A DNA stretch of 64,000 bases, from positions 192,001 to 256,000 of the forward strand of contig JBOEGD010000001.1 of assembly GCA_050633245.1 (NCBI GenBank), in the 5' to 3' direction. This document shows positions 1,362 through 18,083 of the stretch, one piece after another. This DNA comes from Calditrichia bacterium. GTDB lineage: Bacteria; Calditrichota; Calditrichia; RBG-13-44-9; J075. Every line of letters starts with the position of its first letter. The stretch's first letter is position 1. The notes under the pieces are model-generated. The model did no database searches, was not told the DNA's origin, and saw only the letters and a program-made list of their open reading frames with translations. The position numbers and the translations under genes were made by a program.

Positions 1362-1399
1362 GATAAAGCATTAATTGAGCTAGAGATTGGGTTTGTAGT

Positions 1400-3892
1400 A
1401 TGAATAATGGAAGTATGACGAGCAATGGGCATCACGATTTTTCCGCCAATGGAACGAATACAAGAACTATTGGAATGCCGGAAATCCTGCAAATTCTAAA
1501 AAGACAAAAATGGTTGCTGATTGGTATCACTATCATTATGGTTCTACTGGCTCTTCTCTACAACCTCTTTTCAACTCCGGTCTATCGTGCTGCAACGATG
1601 ATAAAAAAGGAAAAGCCGCTTAAGGACTACGGCAGCGATGATGTAAGTAAGATTATCCAAATGGGCTCGCCGGATGAGATTGAAACTGAAATAGAAATTC
1701 TTAAAACCCGCGCTGTTTTGGATAAAGTTGTTGATGAGCTTATGCTGTTTTTTCACGTGGGTAAAATTGATCTTCCCAATACGCCGGTTCAAGAATACAA
1801 TATGGATTTGGCCGATTTTAAGGAACTTTATACAAACTTTTATGAGAACCCGGCCTGGTGGCCAAGATTCTCTGAATTTGCATTTATGCCGGGTTATGAA
1901 GGCGGCAGCTACTTTATTGATATATCCAGCGACACATTAAGGCTCTTTAATGCAGAAGAGCTACGCGTTTTGAACGTAATCACCAATAGCAAAAATGCCC
2001 GCTTTCAGGCTGAAGGCGTTGGGTTTACTGTTGACTGCAGTAAAATAATTTCCGGATCGCAAATCTATTTTTCCCTGAAAGACCCGGATGTCGCCATTCT
2101 CGATCTGAAAAATAATATTGAAGTCGATGCCTTACGCAAGACCAGCATCTTCCGCGTCTCTGCGGAATCGCACTCTCCATATATGGCCATGTTGTTGGCG
2201 AATACGTTGGCAGATAAGTTCCGCGAAACGCGCCTGGAGCATAAGCGACAGACCATCCGCTATTCGTACGACTTTGTTGATAAGCAACTTGAAGAGATTA
2301 ACGCGAATCTGAAGGCTGCGGAAGCTGAGCTAAGCGGGTTTCGCAGTAAGAATCAAATTGTAGCAATCGATGAAACCTCGCGTGGGACCATCGAGTTTCT
2401 AAGCAATTTGGAATCGGAAAAAGTTAAGACTGATCTGCAGTTAGCAGAGTATCGCAATCGACATAAAGCGCTCTCGGATGCTGTTGGTGAGACAGGCTAC
2501 TTCGATCAAACATACTTGACGCCAACTCAATCCGATCAACGCGATTCGCCTTTTTCGGTCTTACTGAGGCAGCTTTCCGAAGCAGAGCTCGAACGCCTTG
2601 AGCTTCTGCAAAAGCGAACGGATAATCACCCTGATGTTTTGGCAATAGACCAGCGAATTGAGCAGATAAAAACCCGCTTGGCCGGATTTAATCAAAATAC
2701 GATCACTTCCTACCAGGTATTCATTACGTCGCTTGAACAGAAACAGCGGGATCTGCGACGCCTTATTCGCAAATACGAATCTAAAATTAAAGCTCTTCCG
2801 GCATTTGAAACGCGGTTGCTGAGCCTGAATCGCAAAAAAGGCGTCTATGAAAAAATGTTTGTTCAGCTTTTGGATAAGCGTGAAGAAATGCGGATGGCTG
2901 AACTTTCTAAGCTTCAGGATATTGTCATTGTAGACCCGGCAGATGTACCCTATCGTCCGGTTCGACCGCGCCAGCGTTTTAATCTGTTCTTTGGATTGGT
3001 TTTTGGTCTTATGTGTGGATTAGTAACAATTTTCTGGCGAGAGTTGCGCAGTGATACGATCCGTAGCATAAACGAGATTGAAGATGTATACGGCCTTCCG
3101 GTGATGTCGATTCTACCGGTTTATCCGAAGCAATATATTCGCGAAATTGATAATGAGTTTACTCTGGAAAACCATCTCGAGCTGCTTACCGATGCCGAGT
3201 TTGGCTATAAGGAAGCATATCGCGTGTTGCGAACGCGATTGTCGCATACTCTGAAGGATAACAAGATTTTCATGGTGTCCAGCTGTGAAGAGAATACCGG
3301 GAAAACCACAGTTCTCACAAATTACGCAGTTGCTTTAGCACTTGCTGAAAAGAAGGTGTTGGTAATTGACTGCGACCTGCGCAAGCCGAAGGTTGGAGAA
3401 TTTTTTGGTCTGCCATATCGCTCTCCGGGGCTAATTGGTTTTTTGACCAGGGAAACGCCCAGGCCAACCATCTATACACCTTTTGAAAAGATAAACGGTC
3501 GTAAGATAAAGCTCGATGTTATTCCTTCTGGCGGCACTGTAGACAATTCCAGTGAGCTTCTGGATTCTGAAGAGTTCCGAATGTTCTTGAACGACATTGC
3601 AACGTATTATGATTATGTATTAATCGATACGCCGCCGGTAACACGAACGGTAGATGCTCTGGTCGTTGGCGGATTTATTAAGGAAATGGTGTTTATTATT
3701 CGCCCCAACCTTACGCATAAAGATAGCCTGGCCGGTGCCTTGCAAGACCTGAGACAGTTTGATGTGAACGTCTTGGGAACGGTTGTAAACGCCTGCGATG
3801 AGAAGCTCATGAAAGAACAGTACCGACACGGTTATAGCTATGGATATGGATATCAATATCAGGATCAACCGGATACCGGACGGATTCTGTAA
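1400..3892 (+). CDS. wzc: Polysaccharide co-polymerase / BY-kinase
   Basis: Two TM segments around a coiled-coil periplasmic region; Walker A SSCEENTGKTT, IDCDLRKP, IDTPP; C-terminal tyrosine cluster YRHGYSYGYGYQY. Confidence 0.93.
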   Translation: MNNGSMTSNGHHDFSANGTNTRTIGMPEILQILKRQKWLLIGITIIMVLLALLYNLFSTPVYRAATMIKKEKPLKDYGSDDVSKIIQMGSPDEIETEIEILKTRAVLDKVVDELMLFFHVGKIDLPNTPVQEYNMDLADFKELYTNFYENPAWWPRFSEFAFMPGYEGGSYFIDISSDTLRLFNAEELRVLNVITNSKNARFQAEGVGFTVDCSKIISGSQIYFSLKDPDVAILDLKNNIEVDALRKTSIFRVSAESHSPYMAMLLANTLADKFRETRLEHKRQTIRYSYDFVDKQLEEINANLKAAEAELSGFRSKNQIVAIDETSRGTIEFLSNLESEKVKTDLQLAEYRNRHKALSDAVGETGYFDQTYLTPTQSDQRDSPFSVLLRQLSEAELERLELLQKRTDNHPDVLAIDQRIEQIKTRLAGFNQNTITSYQVFITSLEQKQRDLRRLIRKYESKIKALPAFETRLLSLNRKKGVYEKMFVQLLDKREEMRMAELSKLQDIVIVDPADVPYRPVRPRQRFNLFFGLVFGLMCGLVTIFWRELRSDTIRSINEIEDVYGLPVMSILPVYPKQYIREIDNEFTLENHLELLTDAEFGYKEAYRVLRTRLSHTLKDNKIFMVSSCEENTGKTTVLTNYAVALALAEKKVLVIDCDLRKPKVGEFFGLPYRSPGLIGFLTRETPRPTIYTPFEKINGRKIKLDVIPSGGTVDNSSELLDSEEFRMFLNDIATYYDYVLIDTPPVTRTVDALVVGGFIKEMVFIIRPNLTHKDSLAGALQDLRQFDVNVLGTVVNACDEKLMKEQYRHGYSYGYGYQYQDQPDTGRIL

Positions 3893-3950
3893 AATAGACT
3901 ACTCGCATTCCTGGTAGTCTTAACACTAAACGGATTTTGCAGGTTGGGAA

Positions 3951-5267
3951 TTGAAGCTGTTAACTCGTACATCCTTACCTCATGCTTCGGAAAAGCTGGA
4001 TACAGTTGTTACGAAGCATAATGGCTGGTATGCCATAGAGGACTTTAAGCTATTTCTCAGACGTGAGCGCGAGCGTGAGCAGCGCACCGGCTGGGTTACG
4101 GCTTTTGTCTCTATTTCATTACCAAACTATCAGAAACGTTCGTCGGCTATTTCTAACCGAAGTTACGATCGCTTTTTGGCTCAATTTATTGGTATCATTG
4201 CCAATAATACACGTGATGCCGATATCAAGGCCATCTCAGATAATTATCGCATTTCATTACTGCTGGTCGATACCTCAATGGATCAGGCTAAGCAATTCAT
4301 TGATAAAATTTCTAAGATTCTGTCAGAGTATTTTAAGGGAGAGAACGTTGATCAAGAGCTTCAACTACTCCAAAATGTTCTCATTGCTTCCTATGCTCTT
4401 AGCTCGATAGATAATGGTGGAGAAGTACGCGGTGACGCTATTTCCCTCAAGCATTTCAGATTTCAGGATGAAGTGGATGGGCCAGCGCCTGAGAACGGCA
4501 AGCTTAATAACGCAACGCCTGCTGATGACAGCTTCTATTTTAATTGGGGAATTTTTAGTGCGTCTACACAGCCGTCTCAATTAGACCCGGCACTGACAGC
4601 AGGCCGGACGAAACAATCTTATCATACAGCCTATCCTTTTCTGAAAAGATGTGTCGACATAATTGGCAGCCTTGTGGGAATTCTTCTCTTTCTACCACTG
4701 ATGGTATTGATTGGAGTCCTTGTTAAATTCACATCTAAAGGACCAATGCTGTTTAAACAAAAACGGATTGGATATCGTGGAGAAATCTTTACCTTCTTGA
4801 AATTCCGCTCTATGCGCACGGATATGGATGATTCGATCCATCGGGAATACGTTACCAAGCTGATTGAAGGAAAGAACGATCAGATAAACAATGGCTCGGG
4901 CGAGGATCCTGTGTATAAAATTACACACGATCCACGAATAACCAAGATTGGTGGCTTTCTAAGGAAAACCAGTCTGGATGAAATACCACAATTTTTCAAT
5001 GTGCTGAGTGGGAAAATGAGCTTGGTTGGTCCACGACCACCGATTCCCTATGAAGTAGACATGTATGAAGACTGGCATTTGCGTCGAATCATGGAAGCAA
5101 AGCCGGGTATTACCGGATTGTGGCAGGTATATGGCCGCAATCAGACAACATTTGATGAGATGGTGCGCCTCGATCTCCAATATATAAAGAAACGATCCAT
5201 CCTTCTGGATCTGAAACTGATTCTACAAACGATTACGGTACTATTTAACCCTGGAGCAGGGTTGTAA
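3951..5267 (+). CDS. Priming glycosyltransferase (polyprenyl-phosphate hexose-1-P transferase, WcaJ/WbaP-type C-terminal domain) with degenerate GGDEF-like N-terminal domain
   Basis: KRCVDI, KFRSM, DPRITKIGGFLRKTSLDEIPQFFNVL, MSLVGPRP, KPGITGLWQV; the N-terminus has a GGDEF-like residue pattern with an RDAD motif. Confidence 0.9.
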   Translation: MKLLTRTSLPHASEKLDTVVTKHNGWYAIEDFKLFLRREREREQRTGWVTAFVSISLPNYQKRSSAISNRSYDRFLAQFIGIIANNTRDADIKAISDNYRISLLLVDTSMDQAKQFIDKISKILSEYFKGENVDQELQLLQNVLIASYALSSIDNGGEVRGDAISLKHFRFQDEVDGPAPENGKLNNATPADDSFYFNWGIFSASTQPSQLDPALTAGRTKQSYHTAYPFLKRCVDIIGSLVGILLFLPLMVLIGVLVKFTSKGPMLFKQKRIGYRGEIFTFLKFRSMRTDMDDSIHREYVTKLIEGKNDQINNGSGEDPVYKITHDPRITKIGGFLRKTSLDEIPQFFNVLSGKMSLVGPRPPIPYEVDMYEDWHLRRIMEAKPGITGLWQVYGRNQTTFDEMVRLDLQYIKKRSILLDLKLILQTITVLFNPGAGL

Positions 5268-5282
5268 TGGAAGGAGAAATGA

Positions 5283-6323
5283 ATGCTTAAAGTTGGAGTC
5301 GTTGGATGTGGGTACTGGGGCCCAAACCTGATTAGAAATTTTCGAAATGCAAAAGACTGCACGGTTGTTATGTGTGCGGACAAGAATGAAGAACGTCTTG
5401 CTAAAATGAAATCACTTTATCCGGAAGTAGAAACGACCACGGATCATCGCGATCTATTGCGCGGAGATATTGCTGCCGTTGCTATCGCAACACCGGTGTG
5501 GACACATTTTCCGCTCGCCAAGGAGTTCCTAAATGCGGGTAAACATGTTTTTATCGAAAAGCCGATTACGCCCTCAGCTAATGAATGCCTGGAATTGATT
5601 GATCTTGCCGAAAAGAAGAATCGCAAGCTAATGGTAGGGCATACGTTTGAGTATACGGCAGCGGTAAATAAAATACGCGAAATTGTGCGCAGTGGAGAGC
5701 TTGGCGATATTATGTATATCAGCAGCACGCGCGTAAACCTGGGGCTTTTTCAGCCGGATATCAATGTGATCTGGGATCTGGCGCCACACGATATTTCCAT
5801 TATTTCATATGTGCTTGGTAAAGATCCGGTCTCGGTGAACGCCCAGGGAAGTGCACACTTCAAGGAGGATATTGAAGATGTGGCAATGACGACGCTGAAT
5901 TACGATAATGGCACAATTGCCTTTCTACATAATAGTTGGTTAGACCCCAACAAAATTCGCAACATGGTCTTTGTCGGAAGTAAGAAGATGCTCGTTTACG
6001 ATGATATCAGTCCAAACGAGAAGATCAAGATTTATGACAAGGGTGTGGATAAACCGAAATACTATGACAGCTTTGCAGAATTTCAGTTTTCCTACCGCTA
6101 TGGTGACATTTATATTCCACGAGTCGAGGAAACAGAAGCCCTTAACAGCGAATGTAATCACTTCCTTAATGCTATTCGAAACGATACCACGCCACGCAGC
6201 GATGGCTATAGTGGACTCAGAGTTGTGCGCATTATTGAAGCCGCATGCAAATCTTTGCGTGAAAACGGATCGGCAGTTCCTTTAGAGCCGCTGGAAAAGC
6301 TTCAAGCAGTAGAGGAGAATTAA
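5283..6323 (+). CDS. Gfo/Idh/MocA family oxidoreductase (WbpB/WlbA-like NDP-sugar dehydrogenase)
   Basis: GVVGCGYWG Rossmann motif, HVFIEKP, DLAPHD. Confidence 0.88.
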   Translation: MLKVGVVGCGYWGPNLIRNFRNAKDCTVVMCADKNEERLAKMKSLYPEVETTTDHRDLLRGDIAAVAIATPVWTHFPLAKEFLNAGKHVFIEKPITPSANECLELIDLAEKKNRKLMVGHTFEYTAAVNKIREIVRSGELGDIMYISSTRVNLGLFQPDINVIWDLAPHDISIISYVLGKDPVSVNAQGSAHFKEDIEDVAMTTLNYDNGTIAFLHNSWLDPNKIRNMVFVGSKKMLVYDDISPNEKIKIYDKGVDKPKYYDSFAEFQFSYRYGDIYIPRVEETEALNSECNHFLNAIRNDTTPRSDGYSGLRVVRIIEAACKSLRENGSAVPLEPLEKLQAVEEN

Positions 6324-6324
6324 G

Positions 6325-6807
6325 ATGGATTTTCAGAAGATCGCCCCGGACGTTAAGCTGGCGAAAACAGCCAAAGTCTTCAGCTTTGTCAATCTATACG
6401 GTTGTGAGATTGGTGAGAATAGTAAGGTTGGCACTTTCGTAGAGATACAAAAAGGCGCAGTGGTCGGTGCGAATTGCAAAATATCCAGCCATTCATTTAT
6501 CTGCGAAGGCGTAACCATCGAAGACGGGGTTTTTATTGGACACGGCGTGATGTTCATAAATGATGTGTATCCACGCTCTACAACTGAAGACGGTGAATTG
6601 CAGACCGATAGCGATTGGGAATGCGTTCCCACCCGCATATGCGAACGCGCTTCAATTGGTTCAAATGCCACCATTCTCTGTGGCGTTACGGTTGGGAAAA
6701 ATGCAATAGTCGGTGCAGGAAGTGTTGTTACAAAGGATGTGCCCGAGAATACAATCGTTGCCGGAAACCCGGCGCGCGAGATACGACATATTGAGGAGAC
6801 CAAATAG
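6325..6807 (+). CDS. Hexapeptide-repeat N-acyltransferase (WbpD/WlbB-like)
   Basis: Left-handed beta-helix repeats, HSFICEGVTIED, FINDVYP, VAGNPAR. Confidence 0.88.
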   Translation: MDFQKIAPDVKLAKTAKVFSFVNLYGCEIGENSKVGTFVEIQKGAVVGANCKISSHSFICEGVTIEDGVFIGHGVMFINDVYPRSTTEDGELQTDSDWECVPTRICERASIGSNATILCGVTVGKNAIVGAGSVVTKDVPENTIVAGNPAREIRHIEETK

Positions 6808-7932
6808 ATGCGAGTACCTTTTCTGGACTTGAAAGCTCAGTACAATAGCATTAACACGGAAGTTCATGAAGCCATTCAAAAAGTCATTGATAAAACTGCT
6901 TTTGCCGGAGGACCGTTTGTAAATGCCTTCGAAGAAGAATTTGCTTCCTATTGCACAACCGAATATGCCATAGGTTGCAGCAGCGGAACCTCTGCTCTTT
7001 GGTTGGCATTGGCAGCCCTTGGCGTTGGCCCGGGAGACGAAGTGATTACTGCGGCAAATACTTTTATTGCTACTGCGGAAGCGATCAGCTTTGCCGGTGC
7101 GACGCCTGTATTTGTCGATATTGAAGAGAACTCGTTTAATCTCGATGCCAGCTTACTTGAACAGGCTGTTACATCGCGCACCAAAGCCGTAATTCCGGTT
7201 CATTTGTTTGGCCAAATGGCAGACATGGATCCGATTATGGAAATTGCCCGTCGACATAATCTGTTTGTTATAGAGGATGCCAGCCAAGCTCACGGTGCAG
7301 AGTACAAAGGAAGGCGTGCCGGTTCCATTGGTGACATTGGCTGTTTTTCTTTCTATCCGGGGAAAAACCTTGGCGCATATGGAGAAGCAGGTGGCATTGT
7401 TACCAATAGTGCTGAGTGGGCTGCTAAAATGAAGATGATAAGAGATCACGGCCAGTCGAAAAAATATCATCATGAAATTATTGGATGGAATGGTCGAATG
7501 GATGGAATTCAGGGGGCAATACTCAGCGTAAAGCTGCGCCATCTGGAAACCTGGACAAATGGACGCCGTGCAAATGCCGGGCTCTATCAGAAATATCTCG
7601 CAGATACCGAGGGCGTGCTGCTGCCAAAGGAGGCTGACCAGGCTCGTCATGTGTATCATATATATGCGATTCGTACATCAAATCGTGATGAGTTGATGAA
7701 AAAACTCAGCGAAAAGGAAATCTATTGCGGTATTCACTACCCGATTCCACTGCATCTGCAAACTGCCTATAGCGATATGGGACATAAGCGCGGCGACTTT
7801 CCGGTTACGGAAGCCTGTGCCGATAGCTATATCTCACTACCCATGTTCGCAGAACTGACCGAAGAACAGATTGCTTTTACTGCAGCAACCATAAAGCAAT
7901 TGATGTCTGAAGAAGTGCCTGTTGGAGTATAG
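6808..7932 (+). CDS. DegT/DnrJ/EryC1/StrS PLP-dependent sugar aminotransferase (WbpE/WlbC-like)
   Basis: SGTSAL, IEDASQAHG, SFYPGKNLGAYGEAG with the PLP lysine, IHYPIPLH. Confidence 0.92.
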   Translation: MRVPFLDLKAQYNSINTEVHEAIQKVIDKTAFAGGPFVNAFEEEFASYCTTEYAIGCSSGTSALWLALAALGVGPGDEVITAANTFIATAEAISFAGATPVFVDIEENSFNLDASLLEQAVTSRTKAVIPVHLFGQMADMDPIMEIARRHNLFVIEDASQAHGAEYKGRRAGSIGDIGCFSFYPGKNLGAYGEAGGIVTNSAEWAAKMKMIRDHGQSKKYHHEIIGWNGRMDGIQGAILSVKLRHLETWTNGRRANAGLYQKYLADTEGVLLPKEADQARHVYHIYAIRTSNRDELMKKLSEKEIYCGIHYPIPLHLQTAYSDMGHKRGDFPVTEACADSYISLPMFAELTEEQIAFTAATIKQLMSEEVPVGV

Positions 7933-7976
7933 AAAACGAGACGCAGGAAGATTGAAGGCGTAATATATTCGAAGGA

Positions 7977-10900
7977 TTGAATGCTATGTACACAGGGAAA
8001 AGTTTGCCGGATCTGCTGGCGGAAGGATTACAGCTGTGGCTAAAGGGACCCGATCAACTCGGGTTTAAGGCGCCGCGCGGCAAACTTTCTCCTGAGCTTA
8101 AAGAAAAGCTTATCGCTGCAAAGCCCGAGCTTTTGGTTACGCTGGAGCGAAACAGGAAATATGCGGCCTGTTCTTTCGCACAACACCGGCTGTGGTTTCT
8201 TGAGCAATTAGATGGCGCCAACCCTGTCTACAATATTCATGCTACCCATATGCTGGAAGGGGAACTGAATGTTGAGGCACTGCAAAACAGCATCACTAAG
8301 GTTCTTCAAAGGCATGATTCCCTGCGCACGGTGTTCGATGCCGCTGACGGTCAGCCGTTTCAGGTAATTGCTGATTCCGTTGAGTTTGAACTACAGCAAA
8401 CCGATTTAACCGCTGTTGAAGAAAGTCTGCGCGACGAGGCGATTGAGCACCATTTGCAAAAAGCCGCGGTAGACACGTTCGATCTACAGCAGGGGCCGTT
8501 GATACGGTTCAGCCTCTATAAACTTTCCGATACCCGCCATGCGTTTATGATTCTTACGCATCACATTATTTTTGATGGTATCTCACTCGGTCTATTGATC
8601 AATGAACTGAGTGCTTCTTATGAAGCACTAATTAGCGGAAAAGAACCGGATTTGCCGCAGCTGCAAAGTAGTTATGCTGATCACGTTAGCTGGCAGCGTC
8701 AGTGGTTTAGCGGCGACGTCGCTCAGAAACAATTGGACTATTGGAAAAATAAGCTGGCCGGTGACCTGGAATCGCTGAATTTGCCATTGGACTATCAGCG
8801 ACCGCAAATTCAGGATACGAGCGGCGATATTCTTTTCTCCGAGATTCCACAAGAGCTATTGAACCGGTTGGATGCTACAGCAAAGCAACACAAGGTCTCG
8901 CTGTTTATGCTGCTCGTTACAGCGGTTAACGTGTTGTTGTCTCGATACTGTAGTCAGGATGATATCTTGCTCGGCCTTCCGGTTGCCAATCGCTCGCGAA
9001 AAAAAGTTGAATCTACTGTCGGCTACTTTGCCAATACCCTGGTTTTGCGCACAAATCTGGCCGACGAACCTACCTTTGCAGAAATGCTACAGCGCGTTCG
9101 TACTGTTTGTTTGGATGCGTATAATCATGAAGATGCTCCATTTGAACAAGTTGTAAGTGCCGTTCAACCGGCTCAGGATCGTAGTCGGACACCACTCTTC
9201 CAGGCAATGGTTAGTTATGATGAAGCAGTTAATCATGCCCGAAAGCTTGGGGAAGTGACAATGGAGCGAATGCCGATAAGAAGCAGGGCAGCACGTACCG
9301 ACCTGACTATTTGGATGAGTAAAGAGATCGATTCTATTCGCTTTGCCTTTGAATATGCCACAAAGCTATTTCGCCCGGAGACTATCAGGCGGATGATGGA
9401 TGGATTCCTTGCGCTCCTTGAAGCTGTGGTATTAGATACTTCTTTGCCGATAAGCATACTTCCGGTAATAACCGCCGAAAATAAACACCAGCTGTTGAGA
9501 GAGTGGAACCAAACGCAAGCCGATGTGCCGACAAATTGCTGTTTCCATCAGCTGTTTGAAGAAAAGGCTAAGGAGAAACCCGGTCAGATAGCTGCTTCAT
9601 TTAATGGCAGTCAAATTAATTATGATGAGCTCAATAAAGCAGCAAATCGACTCGCAAATCTGCTGATAGGCTATGGTATTGAATCTGGCGACCTGCTCGG
9701 TATTTGTATGGATCGCTCCTTGAGCATGCTTATTGGCTTATTGGCTGCCCAAAAGATTGGTGCCACCTACATACCAATGGACCCGTCGTTTCCTGTAGAC
9801 CGCTTGCAATACATGTGCGAAGACGCTGATGTGAAGTGTATTCTTTCCGAGACCGTTTATGGCGAATTAGTAAGTGGTTTTTCCGGTGAACAAGTTTTCT
9901 ATGATCAGCTTGAAGAAGAGCTGATGCAACAGCCCGATCGCAATTTGGATATTCGAATCTCTCCTACGGCAGCGATGTACATGATTTATACTTCTGGTTC
10001 TACAGGAAGACCGAAAGGCGCTTTGCTGCCGCATTCTGCAGTTGTGAACTTTTTGAATTCAATGAGTAAGTCCCCGGGAGTGCAGGCCTCCGATCGGTTA
10101 TTAGCGATCACCACTCTGTCTTTTGATATTGCAGTCTTAGAACTTTACCTGCCGTTGATGCAGGGAGCCTGCGTTGTTATCGCAGATAGCAAGACGGTAA
10201 TGGATCCGCCTTCACTGAAGCTGCTTTTGAGCAACGAGAATATTACGGTAATGCAAGCAACACCCACAACTTGGCGGATGCTCCTGGAAACAAGCTGGAA
10301 TCCTCCACCGCAGTTTAAAGCTTTATGCGGTGGAGAAGCAATGCCACAGTCGTTGTGCAACAGCCTGCTGAAAAAAGGCGTGGAACTGTGGAATATGTAT
10401 GGTCCTACCGAAACATGCGTCTGGTCTTGCGTTCAAAGAATGCAGCCGGAGCATGACCGCATCCTTATTGGCAGGCCGATCGATAATACAACGATTTACA
10501 TTCTCGATAAGCATCTGAATCCCGTTCCGCAGGGAGTTGCCGGTGATCTGTGGATTGGCGGTGTCGGATTGGCGTTGGGCTATCATAACCGCCCTGAACT
10601 GACCGTAGAACGTTTTATTGATAATCCATTCTCAAGCGAGCCTGATTCAAGGCTATATAAAACGGGGGATTTAGCACGCTATGTAGCTGATGAAACGCTC
10701 GAATGTTTAGGCCGCGATGACTTCCAAATAAAGATACGCGGATATCGGATTGAACCCGGTGAAATTGAGGTGGCCTTAAAAAGCTATTCCGGGATTGAAC
10801 AAGCGGTTGTTACGGTAAAGACATTTTCTGAGGATGATGAAAGGCTGGTCGGCTACGTTATTTCAGAGAATCAAATTGAAGAACAACTACAATCGATTCG

Positions 10901-12191
10901 GCAACACATGAAAGAGGCGCTACCGGACTACATGATTCCCGCAGCAATAATGCAGCTCGATACAATTCCACTGACACCGAATGGTAAAATTGACAGAAAT
11001 GCGCTACCACTGCCACAGCCCAAGGTGTCCACTATTCCGATTGAGGTAAAGCGCCCGGTTACCAAATTGGAAGCGAAGCTGATCGCTATTTGGGAATCCG
11101 TTTTGATGGCGAAATCTATTGGAGTGAACGACAATTTTTTTGAGATTGGCGGACATTCATTACTGGCTGCGCGAATCTTTGCTCGAATTGAGAGTGAGTT
11201 GGGTAAAAAATTGCCGCTGGCCACGCTCTTTACCGTACAAACGATTGCCGGACTCGCCGCAGCGATGCAGGAAGAAACGGTCTCTTCAGACTGGTCTTCG
11301 CTGGTGCCAATCCAAACCTCTGGTGACCGTCCACCGTTGTTCTTAATTCACGGTGCCGGTGGGAATGTGCTGCTTTATCGCGACTTAGCTCATTATTTAG
11401 GAGACGATCAGCCCGTTTATGGTCTGCAGGCCCAAGGGCTCGATGGCTCGATGAATTATCTGACTCGTTTTGAAGAGATGGCTGAGCGTTACATCTCCGA
11501 AATCAGAGCTCAACAGCCGAGTGGACCATATTACTTGGGTGGTTATTGTCTTGGCGGCACTCTGGCGTTTGAAGTGGCTAAGCAGCTAACGAGTGTCGGA
11601 GAGCAGGTTGCACTCGTGGCCATGTTCGAGACATTTAACATACATGTGCTGAATAAAAAAGTTCACTCGAAGCCTTACCAGATTCTACACAAAATGCAAA
11701 ATTGGAAGTTTCACTTTGAGAATCTGATGGCACTGGATGCAAAGAGTCGTGCAGACTTCTTCCTCGAAAAAGCACGCGTAGAACGCAGCAGGGCCAAGGC
11801 TTCGCTGGAAGTTGGCGTGAACAATCTTTTTCGAAAGTTAGGCCGTGCCAATCTTGTCGAAGACAAGCCGGCTCCCGTTATTCTCGACCCTATTAATGAT
11901 CGCGCACAATATCACTATGTGCCAACACCATACTCAGGGCGCATAACCCTTTTCCAACCGGTAAAAAGTTTCGCAGGATTCGAGGATGAATTCAGTGGTT
12001 GGAGTGGACTTGCGGAAGGTGGAATTGACCTTCAGGAAATGCCGTTAAGGCCGCGTGGCATGATGGTGGAACCGTTTGTTAAACTTTTAGCTGAAAAACT
12101 AAACGTTTGTATAAGCAAAAGTAGGCGAACCTATTTTGCTCAAGAAACCAATGACCCTAAAAAGACAGGAATGTCTGATGAAGCGAGATAG
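7977..12191 (+). CDS. Single-module NRPS: N-terminal docking-like domain, C, A (predicted Gly), T, TE (alternative ATG at 7986)
   Basis: SFAQHRLWFL and HHIIFDG (C); YTSGSTGRPKG, SFDIAV, NMYGPTE, YKTGDL, QIKIRGYRIEPGEIE, LTPNGKIDR (A); FFEIGGHSLLA (T); GYCLGG (TE). Confidence 0.93.
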   Translation: MNAMYTGKSLPDLLAEGLQLWLKGPDQLGFKAPRGKLSPELKEKLIAAKPELLVTLERNRKYAACSFAQHRLWFLEQLDGANPVYNIHATHMLEGELNVEALQNSITKVLQRHDSLRTVFDAADGQPFQVIADSVEFELQQTDLTAVEESLRDEAIEHHLQKAAVDTFDLQQGPLIRFSLYKLSDTRHAFMILTHHIIFDGISLGLLINELSASYEALISGKEPDLPQLQSSYADHVSWQRQWFSGDVAQKQLDYWKNKLAGDLESLNLPLDYQRPQIQDTSGDILFSEIPQELLNRLDATAKQHKVSLFMLLVTAVNVLLSRYCSQDDILLGLPVANRSRKKVESTVGYFANTLVLRTNLADEPTFAEMLQRVRTVCLDAYNHEDAPFEQVVSAVQPAQDRSRTPLFQAMVSYDEAVNHARKLGEVTMERMPIRSRAARTDLTIWMSKEIDSIRFAFEYATKLFRPETIRRMMDGFLALLEAVVLDTSLPISILPVITAENKHQLLREWNQTQADVPTNCCFHQLFEEKAKEKPGQIAASFNGSQINYDELNKAANRLANLLIGYGIESGDLLGICMDRSLSMLIGLLAAQKIGATYIPMDPSFPVDRLQYMCEDADVKCILSETVYGELVSGFSGEQVFYDQLEEELMQQPDRNLDIRISPTAAMYMIYTSGSTGRPKGALLPHSAVVNFLNSMSKSPGVQASDRLLAITTLSFDIAVLELYLPLMQGACVVIADSKTVMDPPSLKLLLSNENITVMQATPTTWRMLLETSWNPPPQFKALCGGEAMPQSLCNSLLKKGVELWNMYGPTETCVWSCVQRMQPEHDRILIGRPIDNTTIYILDKHLNPVPQGVAGDLWIGGVGLALGYHNRPELTVERFIDNPFSSEPDSRLYKTGDLARYVADETLECLGRDDFQIKIRGYRIEPGEIEVALKSYSGIEQAVVTVKTFSEDDERLVGYVISENQIEEQLQSIRQHMKEALPDYMIPAAIMQLDTIPLTPNGKIDRNALPLPQPKVSTIPIEVKRPVTKLEAKLIAIWESVLMAKSIGVNDNFFEIGGHSLLAARIFARIESELGKKLPLATLFTVQTIAGLAAAMQEETVSSDWSSLVPIQTSGDRPPLFLIHGAGGNVLLYRDLAHYLGDDQPVYGLQAQGLDGSMNYLTRFEEMAERYISEIRAQQPSGPYYLGGYCLGGTLAFEVAKQLTSVGEQVALVAMFETFNIHVLNKKVHSKPYQILHKMQNWKFHFENLMALDAKSRADFFLEKARVERSRAKASLEVGVNNLFRKLGRANLVEDKPAPVILDPINDRAQYHYVPTPYSGRITLFQPVKSFAGFEDEFSGWSGLAEGGIDLQEMPLRPRGMMVEPFVKLLAEKLNVCISKSRRTYFAQETNDPKKTGMSDEAR

Positions 12192-13140
12192 CAAAGTCAA
12201 AAAGTTGTATTATATGGCACGGCCGGTAATTCCGCGTCGGATTCAGCTGTCTGCCAGAAGAAAGCTAATAGCGCGACAACGCGAGCAGTTCCGCGAAAGC
12301 TGGCCGATTTTGAAAAGCGCATCTAAGCCACCAATGGGTTGGCGGGGATGGCCGGAGGGCAAACGCTTTTCAGTGGTTTTGACGCATGATGTGGAAACAT
12401 ATCGCGGACATGAACGCTGTATGAGGCTAATGGATCTGGAGAAAAAGCTGGGATTTCGTTCCTCATTTAACTTCGTTCCAGAACGGTATGACGTTTCACC
12501 GGATTTACGCAGCCAACTACAGTTGCATGGGTTCGAGGTGGGTGTGCATGGTCTGAACCATGATGGAAAACTGTATCGCAGCAAAAAAACCTTTCGAGAA
12601 CGAGCAAAGAAGATAAATCAATATTTGGAAGAATGGCAGGTCTCGGGATTCCGCTCACCGGCGATGCATCATAATTTGGATTGGATACGGATGTTAAATA
12701 TCGAATATGATTGTTCTACATTCGATACCGATCCGTTTGAACCGCAATCGGATGGTGTTGCAACTATCTTTCCGTTTTGGGTGGAAAGTGCTCGTGACGA
12801 AAAAGGTTTTGTTGAAATGCCTTATACCCTGGCTCAGGACTTTACTCTTTTTGTGCTAATGCAGGAAAAAACGATTCATCTTTGGCAGCAAAAGCTGGAT
12901 TGGATTGCCGAAAACGGCGGAATGGTGCTGATAAATACCCACCCGGATTACATGCGATTTGGTAGCGCCAAGCCGGGAATTGAAGAATATTACGTCGATC
13001 GATATGTCGAATTATTGTCTTATATAAACGAGCGATATGCGGGTGATTTCTGGCATGTTTTACCTTTGGAGATGGCGCGATATTGGTCAGAATACGTAGA
13101 ATCGGATAAAAATACATCCGATATCGGTTTTGTTTTATAA
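12178..13140 (+). CDS. Polysaccharide deacetylase-like protein
   Basis: LTHDVE, EVGVHGLNH, GFRSP, NTHPDY; ATG at 12178 has an SD-like AGGA and overlaps the end of the NRPS. Confidence 0.78.
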   Translation: MKRDSKVKKLYYMARPVIPRRIQLSARRKLIARQREQFRESWPILKSASKPPMGWRGWPEGKRFSVVLTHDVETYRGHERCMRLMDLEKKLGFRSSFNFVPERYDVSPDLRSQLQLHGFEVGVHGLNHDGKLYRSKKTFRERAKKINQYLEEWQVSGFRSPAMHHNLDWIRMLNIEYDCSTFDTDPFEPQSDGVATIFPFWVESARDEKGFVEMPYTLAQDFTLFVLMQEKTIHLWQQKLDWIAENGGMVLINTHPDYMRFGSAKPGIEEYYVDRYVELLSYINERYAGDFWHVLPLEMARYWSEYVESDKNTSDIGFVL

Positions 13141-13250
13141 GATGTTTGATGAGGTTTACACGCTTTCCCGGGATGGATAGCAGGTGATGTAAAGAGGAAA
13201 TAGAGAAAGCAATAAGTCTGTTTTATGCAGACTCTTATGGAAGGAAAGAA

Positions 13251-14513
13251 ATGAAACGCATCGCAATGGTTGTGTATTCCTATTATCCCAGTGACCCGCG
13301 GGTAACGCGGGAGGCGCTTGCCCTTAGCGAGAAAGGTTATGAAGTAGACATTATTTGTCTAAGAGGAGAATCTGAAGCAGCAAAAGAAACGGTTGATGGA
13401 ATTACAGTTTACCGGTTGAATATGAGTCGCCATCGTGGCAATATGCTGCGGTATCTGTGGGCATACTTCTCGTTTCTTATGCGTTCTTTTGTAAAGCTGA
13501 GTCTGAAACAACTTAAGAAAAGCTACGACATTGTTCACGTCCACAACATGCCCGATATCTTGGTCTTATCGGCACTGCTTCCAAAGTTAATGGGAGCCAA
13601 AATTGTTCTGGATCTGCACGATCCCATGCCGGAAGTATTCATCGCAAAGTTTGAGTCTGGCTACAGTCATCCGCTAATTCGCTTATTAATGATGATGGAA
13701 AAGTTTAGTGTCGGTTTCTCGAACCTTGTGCTTACCCCTAACCTGGCATTTCGGGATCTGTTTATCAAACGAGGTTGTCCGGACTGGAAAATTCACATTG
13801 TAATGAATTCTCCTGTCGAGGAAATCTTTGATGAGAAACTTAATGCTTTGGCATCTTCTGCTGAGAGGCTTGATGACGCGCCTGAGCCCTTTGTGGTAAT
13901 GTATCACGGAAGCGTAGTACGACGTCATGGATTAGACGATGCCGTAAAAGCCGTTAAGTTGCTAAAGGACAAAATTCCAATGCTGCACTTTAACGTTTTT
14001 GGCGGGGGCGAGTTTGTAGAGCCTTTCAAAAAGGTCGTGCGTGATGAAGGTGTGTCTTCACATGTTACCTACTTCGGTGGAGTGAGTATTGAGCGTATTG
14101 CCAGAGAAATTGCGCGCGTTGATGTTGGGATTATTCCGAATAAAAGAAGCCCGTTTACCGATATCAACCTGCCAACCCGTATTTTTGAGTATCTATCAAT
14201 GAAAAAGCCGGTTATCGCTTGCCGAACGCACGGGATCCAGGATTATTTTTCCGAGGATGAAATCCACTTCTTTGAGCCAGGAAATATTACAGATCTTGCG
14301 CGAGTGATCGGAGATATTTACGACAACCGTGAGCGAGCTTTGGCCGTTATGCAGCGCGGACAGGCAGTCTATAATTCCTATCGGTGGACAAAGCAGAAAG
14401 ACTACCTGGTACGTTTGGTCGATGCTTTGCTTGCGGATGGAATAAAGCAGATTCAACCGGAGCTTCCGGAAGATATAACTCGTGACGTAGTGGATGCACC
14501 CTTTTCAGGGTAA
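13251..14513 (+). CDS. Glycosyltransferase family 4
   Basis: DPRVTREA, HVHNMPD, DLHDPMPE, PTRIFEYLSMKKPVI. Confidence 0.88.
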   Translation: MKRIAMVVYSYYPSDPRVTREALALSEKGYEVDIICLRGESEAAKETVDGITVYRLNMSRHRGNMLRYLWAYFSFLMRSFVKLSLKQLKKSYDIVHVHNMPDILVLSALLPKLMGAKIVLDLHDPMPEVFIAKFESGYSHPLIRLLMMMEKFSVGFSNLVLTPNLAFRDLFIKRGCPDWKIHIVMNSPVEEIFDEKLNALASSAERLDDAPEPFVVMYHGSVVRRHGLDDAVKAVKLLKDKIPMLHFNVFGGGEFVEPFKKVVRDEGVSSHVTYFGGVSIERIAREIARVDVGIIPNKRSPFTDINLPTRIFEYLSMKKPVIACRTHGIQDYFSEDEIHFFEPGNITDLARVIGDIYDNRERALAVMQRGQAVYNSYRWTKQKDYLVRLVDALLADGIKQIQPELPEDITRDVVDAPFSG

Positions 14514-14558
14514 AAAGCTTATCCAAGAGCGCTAAATGAACAACAGGCTGATGCAAAT

Positions 14559-15431
14559 ATGAAGTATACCTTAATTACTCCGGCTCGCAATGAAGAGGCC
14601 TATTTGGAAAAAACGATTCAGACCGTTATTGCACAAACAATCCTGCCGCAGCGCTGGGTAATTGTCAGCGATGGCTCGACGGATCGGACAGATGAAATAG
14701 CCGGTAAATACGCAGCAGAATACGATTTCATTCAGTTGATTGCCAATGATGCAGATGCCGAGCGCAATTTTGGCTCGAAATCGAAAGCTATCGAGTATGG
14801 CTATAAACAACTTTCCGGAATCGATTACGATTACATCGGAAATCTTGATGCCGATGTCGCCTTTGCCCCAAATTATTACGAGCAAATTCTGACGAAATTT
14901 GAAGAAAATCCGAAACTTGGAGTAGCGGGAGGCATTCGATATGATCTGGTCTCGGGTGAAACGTTTGAAAAAGTAATGTGCGCTAAAAATAGTGTCGGTG
15001 GACCATTTCAACTTTTTCGACGGGAATGTTATGAAAAAATCGGCGGTTACTTGCCATTAAAATACGGTGGTGTCGATGCCGTTGCCGAAACGATGGCCAG
15101 GATGCATGGCTGGCAAGTTCAGTCATTTGATGAGTATCGTGTTAACCATTTTCGTCGCACCGGAACTGCCGGGCGCGGCATTATCCACGCGCGATTTCGC
15201 GCCGGAATTAAAGACTACCTGATCGGTTATCATCCCCTTTTTCAACTGCTTCGAGGAACATATCATATGCTGGGCAGCCCGTTTCTAATCGGTGGAGCTG
15301 CATTTCTAAGCGGCTACTTTTGGGCAGCATTGCGTCGCTTAAAACGTCCGGTTTCTGATGAGTTTGTCAGCTACCTGCGTACCGAGCAAATGGCGCGGCT
15401 ACGTGGCAAGAATGCGGCTTTTCGCTTATAG
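14559..15431 (+). CDS. Glycosyltransferase family 2
   Basis: ITPARNEE, VSDGSTDRT, DAD motif. Confidence 0.9.
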   Translation: MKYTLITPARNEEAYLEKTIQTVIAQTILPQRWVIVSDGSTDRTDEIAGKYAAEYDFIQLIANDADAERNFGSKSKAIEYGYKQLSGIDYDYIGNLDADVAFAPNYYEQILTKFEENPKLGVAGGIRYDLVSGETFEKVMCAKNSVGGPFQLFRRECYEKIGGYLPLKYGGVDAVAETMARMHGWQVQSFDEYRVNHFRRTGTAGRGIIHARFRAGIKDYLIGYHPLFQLLRGTYHMLGSPFLIGGAAFLSGYFWAALRRLKRPVSDEFVSYLRTEQMARLRGKNAAFRL

Positions 15432-15462
15432 CACTATAAATTAGCATTAATTAGCAGGGAAT

Positions 15463-16926
15463 ATGGATAAAGGGTTTGTAAAATCTTTCTTGAAAGGCTC
15501 CGCCGCCGCTTCTATCGGGCAATTTGCGTCGATTGCCTTTCACTTCCTCAGCATAATGGTGCTTACCAGGAAGATGCCAAAAGAAGAATTTGGTATTTAT
15601 TTACTCATCCTTGTTGTAGTACATCTCCTGAAAATTCTTAGCGGGCTCGGTCTGGATCTGACGCTCGTAAAGTTTATTGCCTCTCGCAAAGAGCATACGA
15701 AGTCTGGTGTACTGGGCACAGTTTTGACGCTTCGTGCGATGCTTCTTGTTCTCTTCGGAGCATTGGTTTATGGGGTTGGGCATTTGCTGACCCCGATGCT
15801 GGATGTGCGGATTAATGACTATCTGATTTATATTCCAATTATTGTCTTTTTTGCCAGCTTTCGGGAATTATTCTTCTTTTTATTTCAGGGGTTAAAGCAA
15901 TTTAAGCATTACGCAATTGTACAGGTGCTGTCTGCACTATTCAAGTTTGGATTGATTTTCTGGGCGTATTGGGTGAATGCTTTATCAGTAAGCAATCTTC
16001 TGATGATCGAAATTATCGCATTTGCCATTTCGCTCGTAGTGCAAATTGCATTGACGCCAATGAAGGAACTTGGCGGCTATTCGTTTAAAATGGAAAGTGT
16101 GCGTGAACTACTGCAATTCGGCTTGCCGTTATATGCGAATAACGTTCTAACCTTCCTGTATGGTCGAGTGAATGTGTTTATGATTGGTGCATTTCTTAAT
16201 CCGGCAAGCATTGCTTCATTTGAAGTCGCGGGAAATATCCCGGGTGGATTTGCTCGAATCTTCAAGTCTTTTATCGTTGTGTATTTTCCCAACCTCGCTA
16301 CGCTTTTTGCTGAGGGAAAAACACGCGATGCAGAGAAGGTTATGAATAAGTCGTTGGTTATTTGTGCGACAGCAGTAGCGTTTCTGACAATGGGCGCGTT
16401 TGCATTTCGCGAGGAAATTATGACGCTAATCTTCTCAGAGAATTATCGGGAAGCCGCACTGGCCTTCGCTTTGTTAATGCTGAGCTTTTTACTTTATGCA
16501 CAGGCATCGATTATGGGCTATTCTTTAGTGTCCGCCGGTTATTCCGGCGTTCCCGTAAAAGCCAATATAATTTCCAGCCTGCTTAACCTGGCATTGAGCA
16601 TTGTTCTAATTCCAAAGTATGGCTATATAGGCGCGGTATATTCGGTGATTGCCATGAACGCTGTTTCGCAGATTGTTTACCTCTACTTTTTAAGGAAAAA
16701 CAATATTAAGGCCGACATTATAAATTACGTGAAGCCGCTTGTATTAGCGGTCGGATTACTGGTGCCGTTTATGATGGCAGGTGAACTTCATATTCTACTT
16801 CGCGCTTTGCTGCCTGTCTGTTATGCCGTAGCTGCTGGTCTTTTACTGCCCGATATTCGCAGTCTTCTTATGATGCTACTAAAACGCGGTAACAAGAGCG
16901 ATATGTCTACGGAGTCGGCGTCATGA
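15463..16926 (+). CDS. wzx: Polysaccharide flippase
   Basis: Multi-TM MOP-family pattern, EFGIY, LIPKYGYIGA; position in the EPS operon. Confidence 0.85.
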   Translation: MDKGFVKSFLKGSAAASIGQFASIAFHFLSIMVLTRKMPKEEFGIYLLILVVVHLLKILSGLGLDLTLVKFIASRKEHTKSGVLGTVLTLRAMLLVLFGALVYGVGHLLTPMLDVRINDYLIYIPIIVFFASFRELFFFLFQGLKQFKHYAIVQVLSALFKFGLIFWAYWVNALSVSNLLMIEIIAFAISLVVQIALTPMKELGGYSFKMESVRELLQFGLPLYANNVLTFLYGRVNVFMIGAFLNPASIASFEVAGNIPGGFARIFKSFIVVYFPNLATLFAEGKTRDAEKVMNKSLVICATAVAFLTMGAFAFREEIMTLIFSENYREAALAFALLMLSFLLYAQASIMGYSLVSAGYSGVPVKANIISSLLNLALSIVLIPKYGYIGAVYSVIAMNAVSQIVYLYFLRKNNIKADIINYVKPLVLAVGLLVPFMMAGELHILLRALLPVCYAVAAGLLLPDIRSLLMMLLKRGNKSDMSTESAS

Positions 16927-18047
16927 AGATTATTATGGTAGACAGCCTGGTGGATAACGATTATGCGATCTGTCTTTGCGATGCGCTTCAGCAAAGTGGT
17001 GCGGATGTAAGTTTAGTGGTTACCGAAAATCGTCGCGTGCCGGAGAACGTATCGTTCGATTTGCAGTTTATGGCACCATCAAAAGCACAGGGCATTAGCA
17101 AGATAAGCAAGCTCTGGAAATATTTTCGCTATCTGTATCGCCTGCGTAAATTTGCAAAATCGAGCAATGCTGCTGCCATACACTTTCAGTTCTTTCGACG
17201 TGAAAGACTCGATACCTTCTACTTTGTATTACTACGATTGCTGGGCTACAATGTCATTCATACTGCACATAATGTGTTGCCGCATGAGCGCAGCCGTATC
17301 GACTTCTATCTGAAATATCTGGTCTATCTTTCTGCCCGGCAAATTGTTGTGCACTCCGGCTATATTCGGGATAAGTTGCTGGCATCATTCCGGGTTACAC
17401 CGGGGAAGGTGCACATCATTCCGCACGGGAATTTTGATATGTATGTGCCCGAAGAAGAACTTACTGTTGCAGAGGCGCGGTCGAAGATCAATCTTCCGGA
17501 ATCGGCAGCTGTCGTGCTATGTTTTGGTCATATCCGCGAATACAAAGGCATTGACATCCTGATTCAGGCTTTCGATTTAGCAGCACAGGAGGAAAAAGAC
17601 CTGCATCTTATTATTGCCGGAAGTGCCCGGACGCAGGAACTGAAGGAGCGCTACTGCGTGCAGATTGATGCGATTTCTGCGAGTGATCGAGTGCAATATG
17701 TACCGGACTTTATCCCCAATGAAGCGGTTGCCGAATATTTTACTGCGGCGGATATAATTGCTCTACCGTATCGCGCAATAGATCACAGTGGAATTGTACA
17801 TCTGGCGTACTCTTTTGGTAAGCCGATAATTGCTACACGGGTAGGAGATTTTAGTGAGGCCGTTGAAGAGGGCAAGAGTGGCTTTCTCGTTGAGAAAGAA
17901 GATGCGAAGGCTTTAGCAGAAGCATTAAGGTTGGTAGCAGGTAGCAAAGGCAAGCTGGTCGAAATGGGTGAGTATGCCCAAATGCTGAACAAAACAAAAT
18001 ATTCATGGCAGGATATTGCCCGCAAAACCAGAGCAATATATAAATAA
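16923..18047 (+). CDS. Glycosyltransferase family 4
   Basis: HNVLPHE, IPHG, FGHIREYKG, SGIVHLAYSFGKPIIAT. Confidence 0.9.
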   Translation: MKIIMVDSLVDNDYAICLCDALQQSGADVSLVVTENRRVPENVSFDLQFMAPSKAQGISKISKLWKYFRYLYRLRKFAKSSNAAAIHFQFFRRERLDTFYFVLLRLLGYNVIHTAHNVLPHERSRIDFYLKYLVYLSARQIVVHSGYIRDKLLASFRVTPGKVHIIPHGNFDMYVPEEELTVAEARSKINLPESAAVVLCFGHIREYKGIDILIQAFDLAAQEEKDLHLIIAGSARTQELKERYCVQIDAISASDRVQYVPDFIPNEAVAEYFTAADIIALPYRAIDHSGIVHLAYSFGKPIIATRVGDFSEAVEEGKSGFLVEKEDAKALAEALRLVAGSKGKLVEMGEYAQMLNKTKYSWQDIARKTRAIYK

Positions 18048-18083
18048 GTTTTAGGGCGTACCAAGGTATTACGAGAATTAAGC

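Follow-up and report, generated by a model that had tools for sequence, protein, structure and literature searches.

We analysed a 64,000-nt stretch of DNA from a Calditrichia bacterium (contig JBOEGD010000001.1, positions 192,001 to 256,000; the window, within which coordinates are given unless a contig or locus is named) that carries a gene for a one-module nonribosomal peptide synthetase (NRPS) inside a polysaccharide operon. Open reading frame (ORF) order and a Pfam scan of the window ORFs, which supplies the domain assignments, place 13 genes in a single + strand run at 750-19391, with intergenic gaps of -14 to 110 nt. Genes for Wza, Wzc, an initiating sugar-phosphate transferase, Wzx and Wzy all lie on this strand, confirming the Wzx/Wzy exopolysaccharide setting proposed in a preliminary description of the locus. 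Its account of the immediate neighbourhood also holds: a dehydrogenase, acyltransferase and aminotransferase trio directly precedes the NRPS gene, and a deacetylase-like gene overlaps it. NCBIfam scores quoted for Wzc, the GFO dehydrogenase, DltA, TIGR03019 and TIGR03006 are below the curated cut-offs. The operon genes, with their family matches, are:

750-1361, +: Wza-like polysaccharide export protein (Poly_export and SLBB domains)
1400-3892, +: Wzc-like chain-length determinant/tyrosine autokinase (Wzz, GNVR, AAA_31; NCBIfam Wzc 5e-67, below cut-off)
3951-5267, +: initiating polyprenyl-phosphate sugar-phosphate transferase, PGT (Bac_transf 2e-64; TIGR03025 6.6e-82)
5283-6323, +: sugar-nucleotide 3-dehydrogenase, putative WbpB/GnnA role (GFO_IDH_MocA domains)
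6325-6807, +: left-handed beta-helix N-acetyltransferase, WbpD/WlbB/QdtC class (Hexapep)
6808-7932, +: sugar 3-aminotransferase, WbpE class (DegT_DnrJ_EryC1 3.5e-122)
7986-12191, +: one-module NRPS, TubC_N-C-A(Gly)-PCP-TE with a variant TE (ORF opens at TTG 7977)
12178-13140, +: VimE-type CE4 (NodB-fold) deacetylase (weak PF01522, Polysacc_deac_1; ORF 12136-13140)
13251-14513, +: GT4 glycosyltransferase in the VimF position (Pfam)
14559-15431, +: GT2 glycosyltransferase (Pfam)
15463-16926, +: Wzx-type flippase (Polysacc_synt)
16923-18047, +: GT4 glycosyltransferase (Pfam)
18084-19391, +: Wzy-type polymerase (Wzy_C)

The NRPS is read from an open frame of 1404 codons that begins at 7977, and its likely start is ATG 7986. 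The protein is a termination module in full, carrying both a peptidyl carrier protein (PCP) and a thioesterase (TE) domain, and its condensation (C), adenylation (A) and PCP domains all belong to their families by the motifs expected of them. The domains are:

8010-8144, +: TubC_N-type docking domain, residues 12-56 (PF18563, 2e-9)
8160-9497, +: C domain, residues 62-507 (PF00668, 2.5e-111), with HHIIFDG at 8559-8579, residues 195-201
9555-10988, +: A domain with the code DILQLGMVWK (PF00501, AMP-binding, residues 527-870; PF13193, AMP-binding_C, residues 929-1004)
11076-11264, +: PCP (PP-binding, residues 1034-1096, 3.9e-14), its Ser in GGHSLL at 11148-11165, residues 1058-1063
11334-12188, +: variant TE, a thioesterase-fold domain, residues 1120-1404 (Pfam Thioesterase, residues 1120-1223)

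All C-domain core motifs, which we take to be of the LCL type, and the docking domain are intact, in line with the HHxxxDG motif and TubC-like N-terminus noted before. The earlier statement that the window holds no acyl carrier protein is correct for a separate carrier and incorrect for the NRPS, whose PCP is the one window member of the 11 PP-binding matches in the genome; that description had overlooked the PCP and TE domains, the unusual active site of the TE and the connection to the Wbp/Vim pathway developed below. No phosphopantetheinyl transferase (PPTase) is encoded in the window, as described, and two are found elsewhere in the genome, an AcpS-type enzyme on contig C14 and an Sfp-type enzyme on C18. 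Reading the ten specificity positions from the A4/A5/A10 motif anchors gave the pocket DILQLGMVWK, including Lys517, the same ten residues that had been read by eye, and this is a glycine-type code. In the available portion of a 2025 survey of A domains, DILQLGMIWK is a Gly code and the Gly-type residues are L/M299, L/M322, I/V330, W331 and K517 (PMC12283262). The particular string cited earlier as the known Gly code, DILQLGLIWK, was not found in the literature searched. We also considered the top PDB match, LgrA, as support for glycine and rejected it: its Val-activating domain outscores its second domain over the pocket region (153.7 versus 134.3 bits), so LgrA says nothing about specificity.

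The deacetylase gene probably starts at ATG 12178, since a 98%-identical database protein is 320 aa long, and its overlap with the NRPS gene is then 14 nt rather than 56 nt. This overlap suggests that the two genes are translationally coupled. The genome encodes no other member of the deacetylase's family. Its predicted model (predicted local distance difference test, pLDDT, 91) has the NodB/carbohydrate esterase family 4 (CE4) fold, with 3rxz, PuuE, HP0310, ArnD (8t0j) and WbmS (3hft) as top Foldseek matches, and H70, D71, H124, H128, R159 and H255 are invariant in 50 homologues. By eye, no signal peptide is evident in the basic N-terminus, a judgement made without a predictor.

The three genes that precede the NRPS form a dehydrogenase, aminotransferase and N-acetyltransferase set for a 2,3-diacetamido sugar, as in the Wbp/Vim pathway. 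The best NCBIfam family of the oxidoreductase (5283-6323) is UDP-GlcNAc 3-dehydrogenase (2.5e-57, below cut-off), and its best PDB sequence match is 7bvj (4e-22), presumably GnnA. The acetyltransferase matches 4mzu, 7s43, 3mqg (WlbB, 9e-21) and 3fs8, and the aminotransferase matches QdtB (8e-106) and WbpE (2.6e-81). Together, the matches of the three enzymes point to a 2,3-diacetamido-2,3-dideoxy hexose, probably not in the uronic form.

In the pathway of Porphyromonas gingivalis and Tannerella forsythia, according to the available portion of its description, Wbp enzymes make a di-N-acetyl sugar, its N-2 acetyl is proposed to be removed by VimE, a CE4 protein, and VimA, which matches TIGR03019, sets the amino acid that is added, which is Ser in the first species and Gly in the second, where the product is 2-N-glycyl-3-N-acetyl-mannuronic acid (PMC7468200). 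The resulting free amine carries type IX secretion system (T9SS) cargo, and vimA-vimE-wbp clusters are also described in bacteria without a T9SS (PMC7468200, Veith et al. 2020). The window resembles this pathway in its trio of 3-dehydrogenase, 3-aminotransferase and N-acetyltransferase genes, followed by CE4 and then GT4, and, as far as the genes predict, in placing an amino acid on a deacetylated amine. It differs in having a C-A(Gly)-PCP-TE synthetase where the pathway has the FemAB-like VimA, in a dehydrogenase that resembles the UDP-GlcNAc type, with no WbpA in the window, and in its setting, a Wza/Wzc/Wzx/Wzy exopolysaccharide operon rather than an anionic lipopolysaccharide (A-LPS) pathway.

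We compared this slot between the aminotransferase and the deacetylase with that of related genomes. Members of the deacetylase family were found in 19 of 61 related genomes and, within the same family of organisms, in nine of 15; because it is patchy, it is not a general part of the T9SS here. In one same-family genome, G007, the orthologous locus encodes Wza (55% identity), Wzc (44%), PGT (48%), the oxidoreductase (74%), the acetyltransferase (72%), the aminotransferase (68%), a FemAB-like protein of 343 aa, the deacetylase (60%), GT4 (46%), a further GT4, Wzx and Wzy. Its FemAB-like gene occupies the slot where the window has the NRPS. After Wzy, the G007 locus encodes a 3466-aa protein of the order A-T-KS-AT-T-aminotransferase-C-A-T-TE (T, carrier; KS, ketosynthase; AT, acyltransferase), whose last A domain has the code DILQLGMVWK. 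At 17 further deacetylase places in relatives, a FemAB-like gene is the next match upstream in 12, lies upstream with another match between in three (L250, L253 and L255), is found only downstream in L244, and is absent from L248. Among the ORFs of the window operon we found no FemAB-like gene (PF13480/PF02388); the genome has five PF13480 matches, all elsewhere, the nearest at C1:142052, outside the window. By gene content, the window is therefore an exception, with an NRPS where its kin carry a VimA-type enzyme. Absence of the NRPS from orthologous exopolysaccharide loci had been named beforehand as a finding that would count against its proposed role. Taken literally, it is absent, with no match above 47% identity; since an analogous FemAB-like enzyme stands in its place, we read this absence as supporting the function.

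The cassette around the deacetylase recurs well beyond these relatives. Genes 47-64% identical to the deacetylase were found in 64 loci from Bacteroidota, Thermodesulfobacteriota, Nitrospirota, Ignavibacteriota, Fibrobacterota, Verrucomicrobiota, Acidobacteriota and other phyla, and the order that recurs around them is PGT, oxidoreductase, acetyltransferase, aminotransferase, slot, CE4, GT4, GT2. A FemAB-like gene lies within -6.5 to +3.5 kb of the deacetylase in 42 of the 64 loci, and a GT4 homologue follows it by 0.5-2.5 kb in 27. Seven loci (L099, L110, L114, L118, L122, L128 and L158) have a PCP-TE within 3.5 kb upstream, two of these seven with a FemAB-like gene as well; two of the 64 have an NRPS or polyketide synthase (PKS) downstream. 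The remaining 15 loci lack a FemAB-like gene as well as an NRPS or TE, six of them having less than 3 kb of upstream DNA. Pfam found PF13480/PF02388 in 18 of 63 slot ORFs and PCP-TE ends in six, and two slot proteins match TIGR03019 pepcterm_femAB (8.7e-32 and 3.3e-40, below cut-off) and FemX.

Several loci vary this cassette. In L123 (1391-3598), Pfam places a FemAB-like domain in one protein with a DegT aminotransferase. Loci L146 (9998-12268), L147 (9992-12235) and L152 (9992-12349) contain ORFs of about 750 aa that start with the CE4 homologue and have a GT4a match about 1 kb downstream; ORF lengths and tblastn suggest a CE4-GT4 fusion. Cytophagales-type cassettes (L098, L100 and L104-L106, about 4100-9960) contain a FemAB-like gene, a stand-alone AMP-binding ligase, DUF354, an ORF of no assigned family and, directly upstream of CE4, an AAC(3)-like N-acetyltransferase (Pfam for L098), and may represent another filling of the same slot. 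The ignavibacterial locus L017 (67-8380 and 9434-10447) has two NRPS modules upstream of a C-A(Gly)-PCP-TE/CE4 pair with the variant TE; their A domains are interrupted by a luciferase-like monooxygenase, and a hexapeptide transferase is fused to a PCP.

The TE domain of the NRPS departs from the Ser/Cys-His-Asp triad of type I TEs. By alignment, Cys1191, in GYCLGG (11541-11558), corresponds to the catalytic Ser of 7crn and EntF and to the Cys of AB3403; Glu1218 aligns with the Asp of EntF and AB3403; and Pro1359 stands at the G-x-H position, where canonical TEs in the same alignment carry the catalytic His. A lid motif, FHxxN (His1246 in the window), is present in 18 of 20 aligned members of this variant. 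The predicted PCP-TE model (pLDDT 84) has an ordinary TE fold, nearest to AB3403 (best), EntF, 7crn and the Pks13 TE. Of the TE matches in all fetched loci, 11 lie within 16 kb of a deacetylase, and every one of them is C-[E/D]-[P/S]; the 51 that carry His at the triad position include no TE this close to a deacetylase. In a FastTree phylogeny of 97 rows, from which L087, L238, L239, L142 and L250 (duplicates; L250 repeats L110, which was counted once) and matches shorter than 200 aa were dropped, a clade of 22 (Shimodaira-Hasegawa-like support 99) contains all 12 deacetylase-adjacent TEs, nine other C..P TEs and L186, and none of the 60 S..H or C..H rows. The same or a nearly identical Gly code precedes the variant TE in G007, L017, L080, L196 and L226. 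The best 150 database representatives include 36 C..P TE domains, 34 of them with the lid His, and about 100 of the S-D-H or S-D-gap type, figures that give no size for the clade because proteins with many carrier domains inflate the scores.

Variant TEs also occur in other settings. Stand-alone PCP-TE proteins with neither A nor C domain are encoded at L110 (8905-10023), L128 (55-1404) and L158 (about 1163-2344), lying between the deacetylase and a FemAB-like gene in L110 or a GNAT gene in L128. Exosortase (EpsH) genes lie 2-7 kb downstream of A(Gly)-PCP-TE lines with the variant domain at L020 (16325-17275), L193 (20821-21732) and L194 (16251-17168), with no deacetylase in view and with TPR, AT3 acyltransferase, ATP-grasp and PPTase genes nearby.

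A donor for the C domain could come from the organism's other assembly lines. The window itself encodes no further carrier or synthetase. Further NRPS/PKS genes lie on C18, C19 and C48, a second system for which no TE was found in the assembly. At C18:239745-252083 (L243), the Sfp-type PPTase gene accompanies one for C18a, a 3614-aa protein of the order A-T-sulfotransferase-KS-AT-T-aminotransferase-C-A(Gly)-T that is 43% identical to the G007 megasynthase, and subunits of the C18a type are followed by TubC_N-C proteins that are broken at contig ends. C19:1-24500 (L241, L242) holds C-A-T-C-A, T-C and C-A(Gly)-T genes and a TonB receptor gene. Over residues 9-503, the window NRPS shares 57.6% identity with C18b, the TubC_N-C protein that follows C18a, and 46.6% with its C48 equivalent; the former value exceeds that of any public match to the window NRPS, whose TubC_N domain, one of three in the genome, is close to those of C18b and the C48 protein. 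The tails of C18a, C48a and the orphan C19 C-A(Gly)-T protein are alike, acidic and then hydrophobic. This closeness of its docking and C regions to part of another assembly line of the organism makes it plausible that the NRPS receives a donor in trans. A lipo-initiation starter role for the C domain was considered and rejected: its nearest relative, C18b, follows a C-A-T subunit, which makes it an elongation domain.

In our reading, which we consider probable, glycine or acyl-glycine passes from the NRPS to the amine that the deacetylase frees on the sugar, so that the NRPS replaces VimA and does its job by an undescribed route. Two forms of this reading can be told apart. That glycine is joined to a donor delivered in trans, through TubC_N, from the C18/C19 lines is a real possibility, although we stop short of calling it likely; that glycine is transferred alone is possible and rather more doubtful. 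The operon would make a Wzx/Wzy-type polysaccharide containing a 2,3-diamino-2,3-dideoxy hexose. By their families, the dehydrogenase, aminotransferase and acetyltransferase would convert UDP-GlcNAc to the 2,3-di-N-acetyl sugar, and the CE4 enzyme would then take off one N-acetyl group, that at N-2 by the published Wbp/Vim logic. The A domain is predicted to activate glycine and load the PCP. The thioester, glycyl or, should the C domain first receive a donor, acyl- or peptidyl-glycyl, would pass to Cys1191 of the variant TE and from there to the freed amine. The resulting 2-N-glycyl or 2-N-(X-glycyl) sugar would then be built into the repeat unit by the downstream GT4. Substrate, acceptor, the N-2 position and transfer by the TE are all predictions from sequence. 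The interpretation made beforehand is supported in part. Its core, the attachment of glycine or of an acyl group ending in glycine to an amino sugar, gains strong support from comparison, since the NRPS fills the slot of a VimA-type FemAB-like enzyme and is coupled to a VimE-type deacetylase that should expose the acceptor amine; its donor in trans is plausible. More tentatively, the variant TEs may be sortase-like transacylases that ligate carrier-bound, Gly-ending peptides or lipopeptides to the amine of Vim-type amino sugars. It is equally tentative that the NRPS, in taking over the tRNA-dependent VimA step, also collects the lipopeptide of a remote line through its docking domain.

A number of observations weigh against this reading or limit it. 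FemAB-like and PCP-TE genes with the variant domain co-occur in L099, L110, L196 and G007, so lines with this TE are not always VimA substitutes, and the TE may acylate an aminoacyl amine rather than the sugar amine. Lacking the catalytic His, the domain may also be inactive or do something else. Ten rows of the variant have no deacetylase in the fetched DNA, nine in the clade of 22 and one, L229, outside it. For the NRPS itself, the best non-self identity is 46% among 612 relatives (genome_contigs), 42% in 60 related genomes and 47% among 615 metagenome relatives; no orthologue was found that would attest the conservation of this exact arrangement. The link of the deacetylase to VimE rests on fold, family, gene order and the description in the available portion of PMC7468200. 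A protein atlas gave unnamed clusters for it, a search for homologous proteins gave no VimE name, and against NCBIfam its long ORF had no match at 1e-5 and weak matches, including TIGR03006, at 0.01. As for the sugar, the dehydrogenase matches no WbpB structure in PDB at E <= 1e-10, and the window ORFs scanned include no WbpA-type 6-dehydrogenase for the uronic branch; with a dehydrogenase that looks like the UDP-GlcNAc type, the sugar probably differs from the published uronic linking sugar.

The same module could instead serve release. As the termination module of the C18/C19 lines, it would free a Gly-ending (lipo)peptide, and its place in the operon would reflect co-regulation or chance. 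The resemblance of its docking and C regions to C18b (57.6%) and the C48 protein (46.6%), both of which follow carrier-ending subunits, fits this account, as do the docking-like acidic tail of the C19 C-A(Gly)-T protein, which has no NRPS gene after it, and the window TE being the sole strong PF00975 match in the genome (97.6 bits; others 34.5, 30.3 and 22.2). We nevertheless regard it as unlikely. It leaves unexplained the 14-nt overlap with the deacetylase gene, the adjacency of PCP-TE and deacetylase in several phyla and the FemAB-like gene at the slot in relatives; a TE without His is a poor candidate for a hydrolase, and a second TE may be unassembled, because the assembly is in 59 contigs and the NRPS contigs break inside genes. 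Still less likely, in our view, is a Dlt- or AlmEFG-like system that esterifies glycine to a hydroxyl of a polymer or lipid instead of forming an amide on a deacetylated amine. AlmEFG of Vibrio cholerae reportedly puts carrier-protein-borne glycine on lipid A, and the A domain does match the DltA model NF003417 (6.5e-82, below cut-off). Among the operon ORFs, however, there is no DltB/DltD, no AlmG-like transferase and no separate small carrier; the partner gene that is conserved encodes a CE4 deacetylase, an enzyme that generates an amine, and the enzyme displaced in relatives is of an N-aminoacyl transferase family.

That the module is a decaying or non-catalytic remnant with an inactive TE, in an operon whose polysaccharide bears a free amine or another substituent, seems to us very improbable. 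The replacement of His by Pro and of Asp by Glu could be read as decay, and the 15 of 64 cassettes with neither a FemAB-like gene nor the variant TE imply that the deacetylase can work without either. Yet no stop interrupts the frame of 1404 codons, every recognised motif of the C, A and PCP domains is present, and the TE substitutions are kept across the clade of 22 and several phyla together with invariant Cys, Pro and other residues. Since the substitutions are conserved in this clade and recur among the database representatives (the 36 C..P domains), the pattern is that of a selected variant rather than of decay.

Parts of the proposed mechanism have counterparts in known systems. NodB/NodA and LpxC/LpxD pair a deacetylase that exposes a sugar amine with acylation from a carrier-bound donor. 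Compared with NodA and LpxD, the donor in the window would be the NRPS PCP and the presumed transferase a TE-fold domain; ArnD and WbmS, as noted, are among the fold matches of the deacetylase. AB3403 of A. baumannii and EntF (PDB 4zxh and 5ja1), which are free-standing termination modules, share the C-A-PCP-TE order of the window NRPS, and AB3403 has a Cys nucleophile (GGWCFGG) like the variant TE; both keep Asp where the window has Glu, and the window protein adds the TubC_N docking domain. EntF takes its donor in trans, and to our knowledge neither AB3403 nor EntF lies in a polysaccharide operon. The Pks13 TE transfers mycolate as an ester onto trehalose, using Ser and His, and so delivers an acyl group to a sugar rather than to water; besides being a fold match, it scores like the EntF TE against the variant TE. 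ObiF1 and SulM keep a His-containing triad. They are, like the variant, NRPS TEs with a Cys nucleophile and, in the available portions of the sources, form beta-lactone or beta-lactam rings (PMC6668435, PMC11298585); they differ from it in that it has Pro at the His position. XrtA/PEP-CTERM exosortase exopolysaccharide genes are a further parallel: slot proteins of relatives match TIGR03019, and the deacetylase weakly matches TIGR03006. No exosortase gene was seen in the Pfam scans of the window, which differs in this from the XrtA/PEP-CTERM setting.

According to the available portion of PMC7468200, type IX secretion attaches its secreted proteins to diamino sugars that bear an amino acid, and such sugars have also been proposed as the unknown acceptor in exosortase systems. 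An NRPS feeding such a sugar amine was not found in the literature searched, and none of five Wbp/Vim papers contains the word 'nonribosomal'. If our reading is correct, bacteria of many phyla may make polysaccharides that bear non-ribosomal peptides or lipids, and a function would emerge for a widespread kind of thioesterase in which the textbook triad cannot operate. If the variant TEs are indeed transacylases, their products could be peptide- or lipid-bearing polysaccharides, or still unidentified anchors of exosortase- or T9SS-type sorting. A tRNA-dependent enzyme and an NRPS in the same slot of related genomes also form a natural experiment.

The NRPS gene shows no signal of transfer by composition, since its GC content (0.474) is within the range of its neighbours (0.428-0.474). 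Promoter-like sites (34, with 34.7 expected) and terminator-like sites (25, with 20.9 expected) were uninformative. A right-handed beta-helix (pectate-lyase-like) protein gene (19399-20742, - strand) converges on the operon end and may encode a depolymerase for the polysaccharide. From 20 to 64 kb, the window holds unrelated housekeeping genes and three genes (22961-23593, 37235-38383 and 38439-39590, all - strand) for proteins with T9SS C-terminal sorting domains, by which the organism has a T9SS.

Many loci fetched by similarity to the NRPS hold NRPS or PKS genes within polysaccharide loci. One group of acidobacterial and verrucomicrobial loci (L022, L044, L046, L053, L054 and L015, about 6300-14000) encodes Wzc, PGT and a long FemAB-like protein (about 650 aa), then a C-A(Gly)-PCP-TE whose triad is the canonical Ser/Asp/His. 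A sulfotransferase, Wzy, a deacetylase, GT4 and a carbamoyltransferase follow in L022, the sole such locus Pfam-scanned beyond the NRPS. This looks like a different NRPS-in-exopolysaccharide arrangement.

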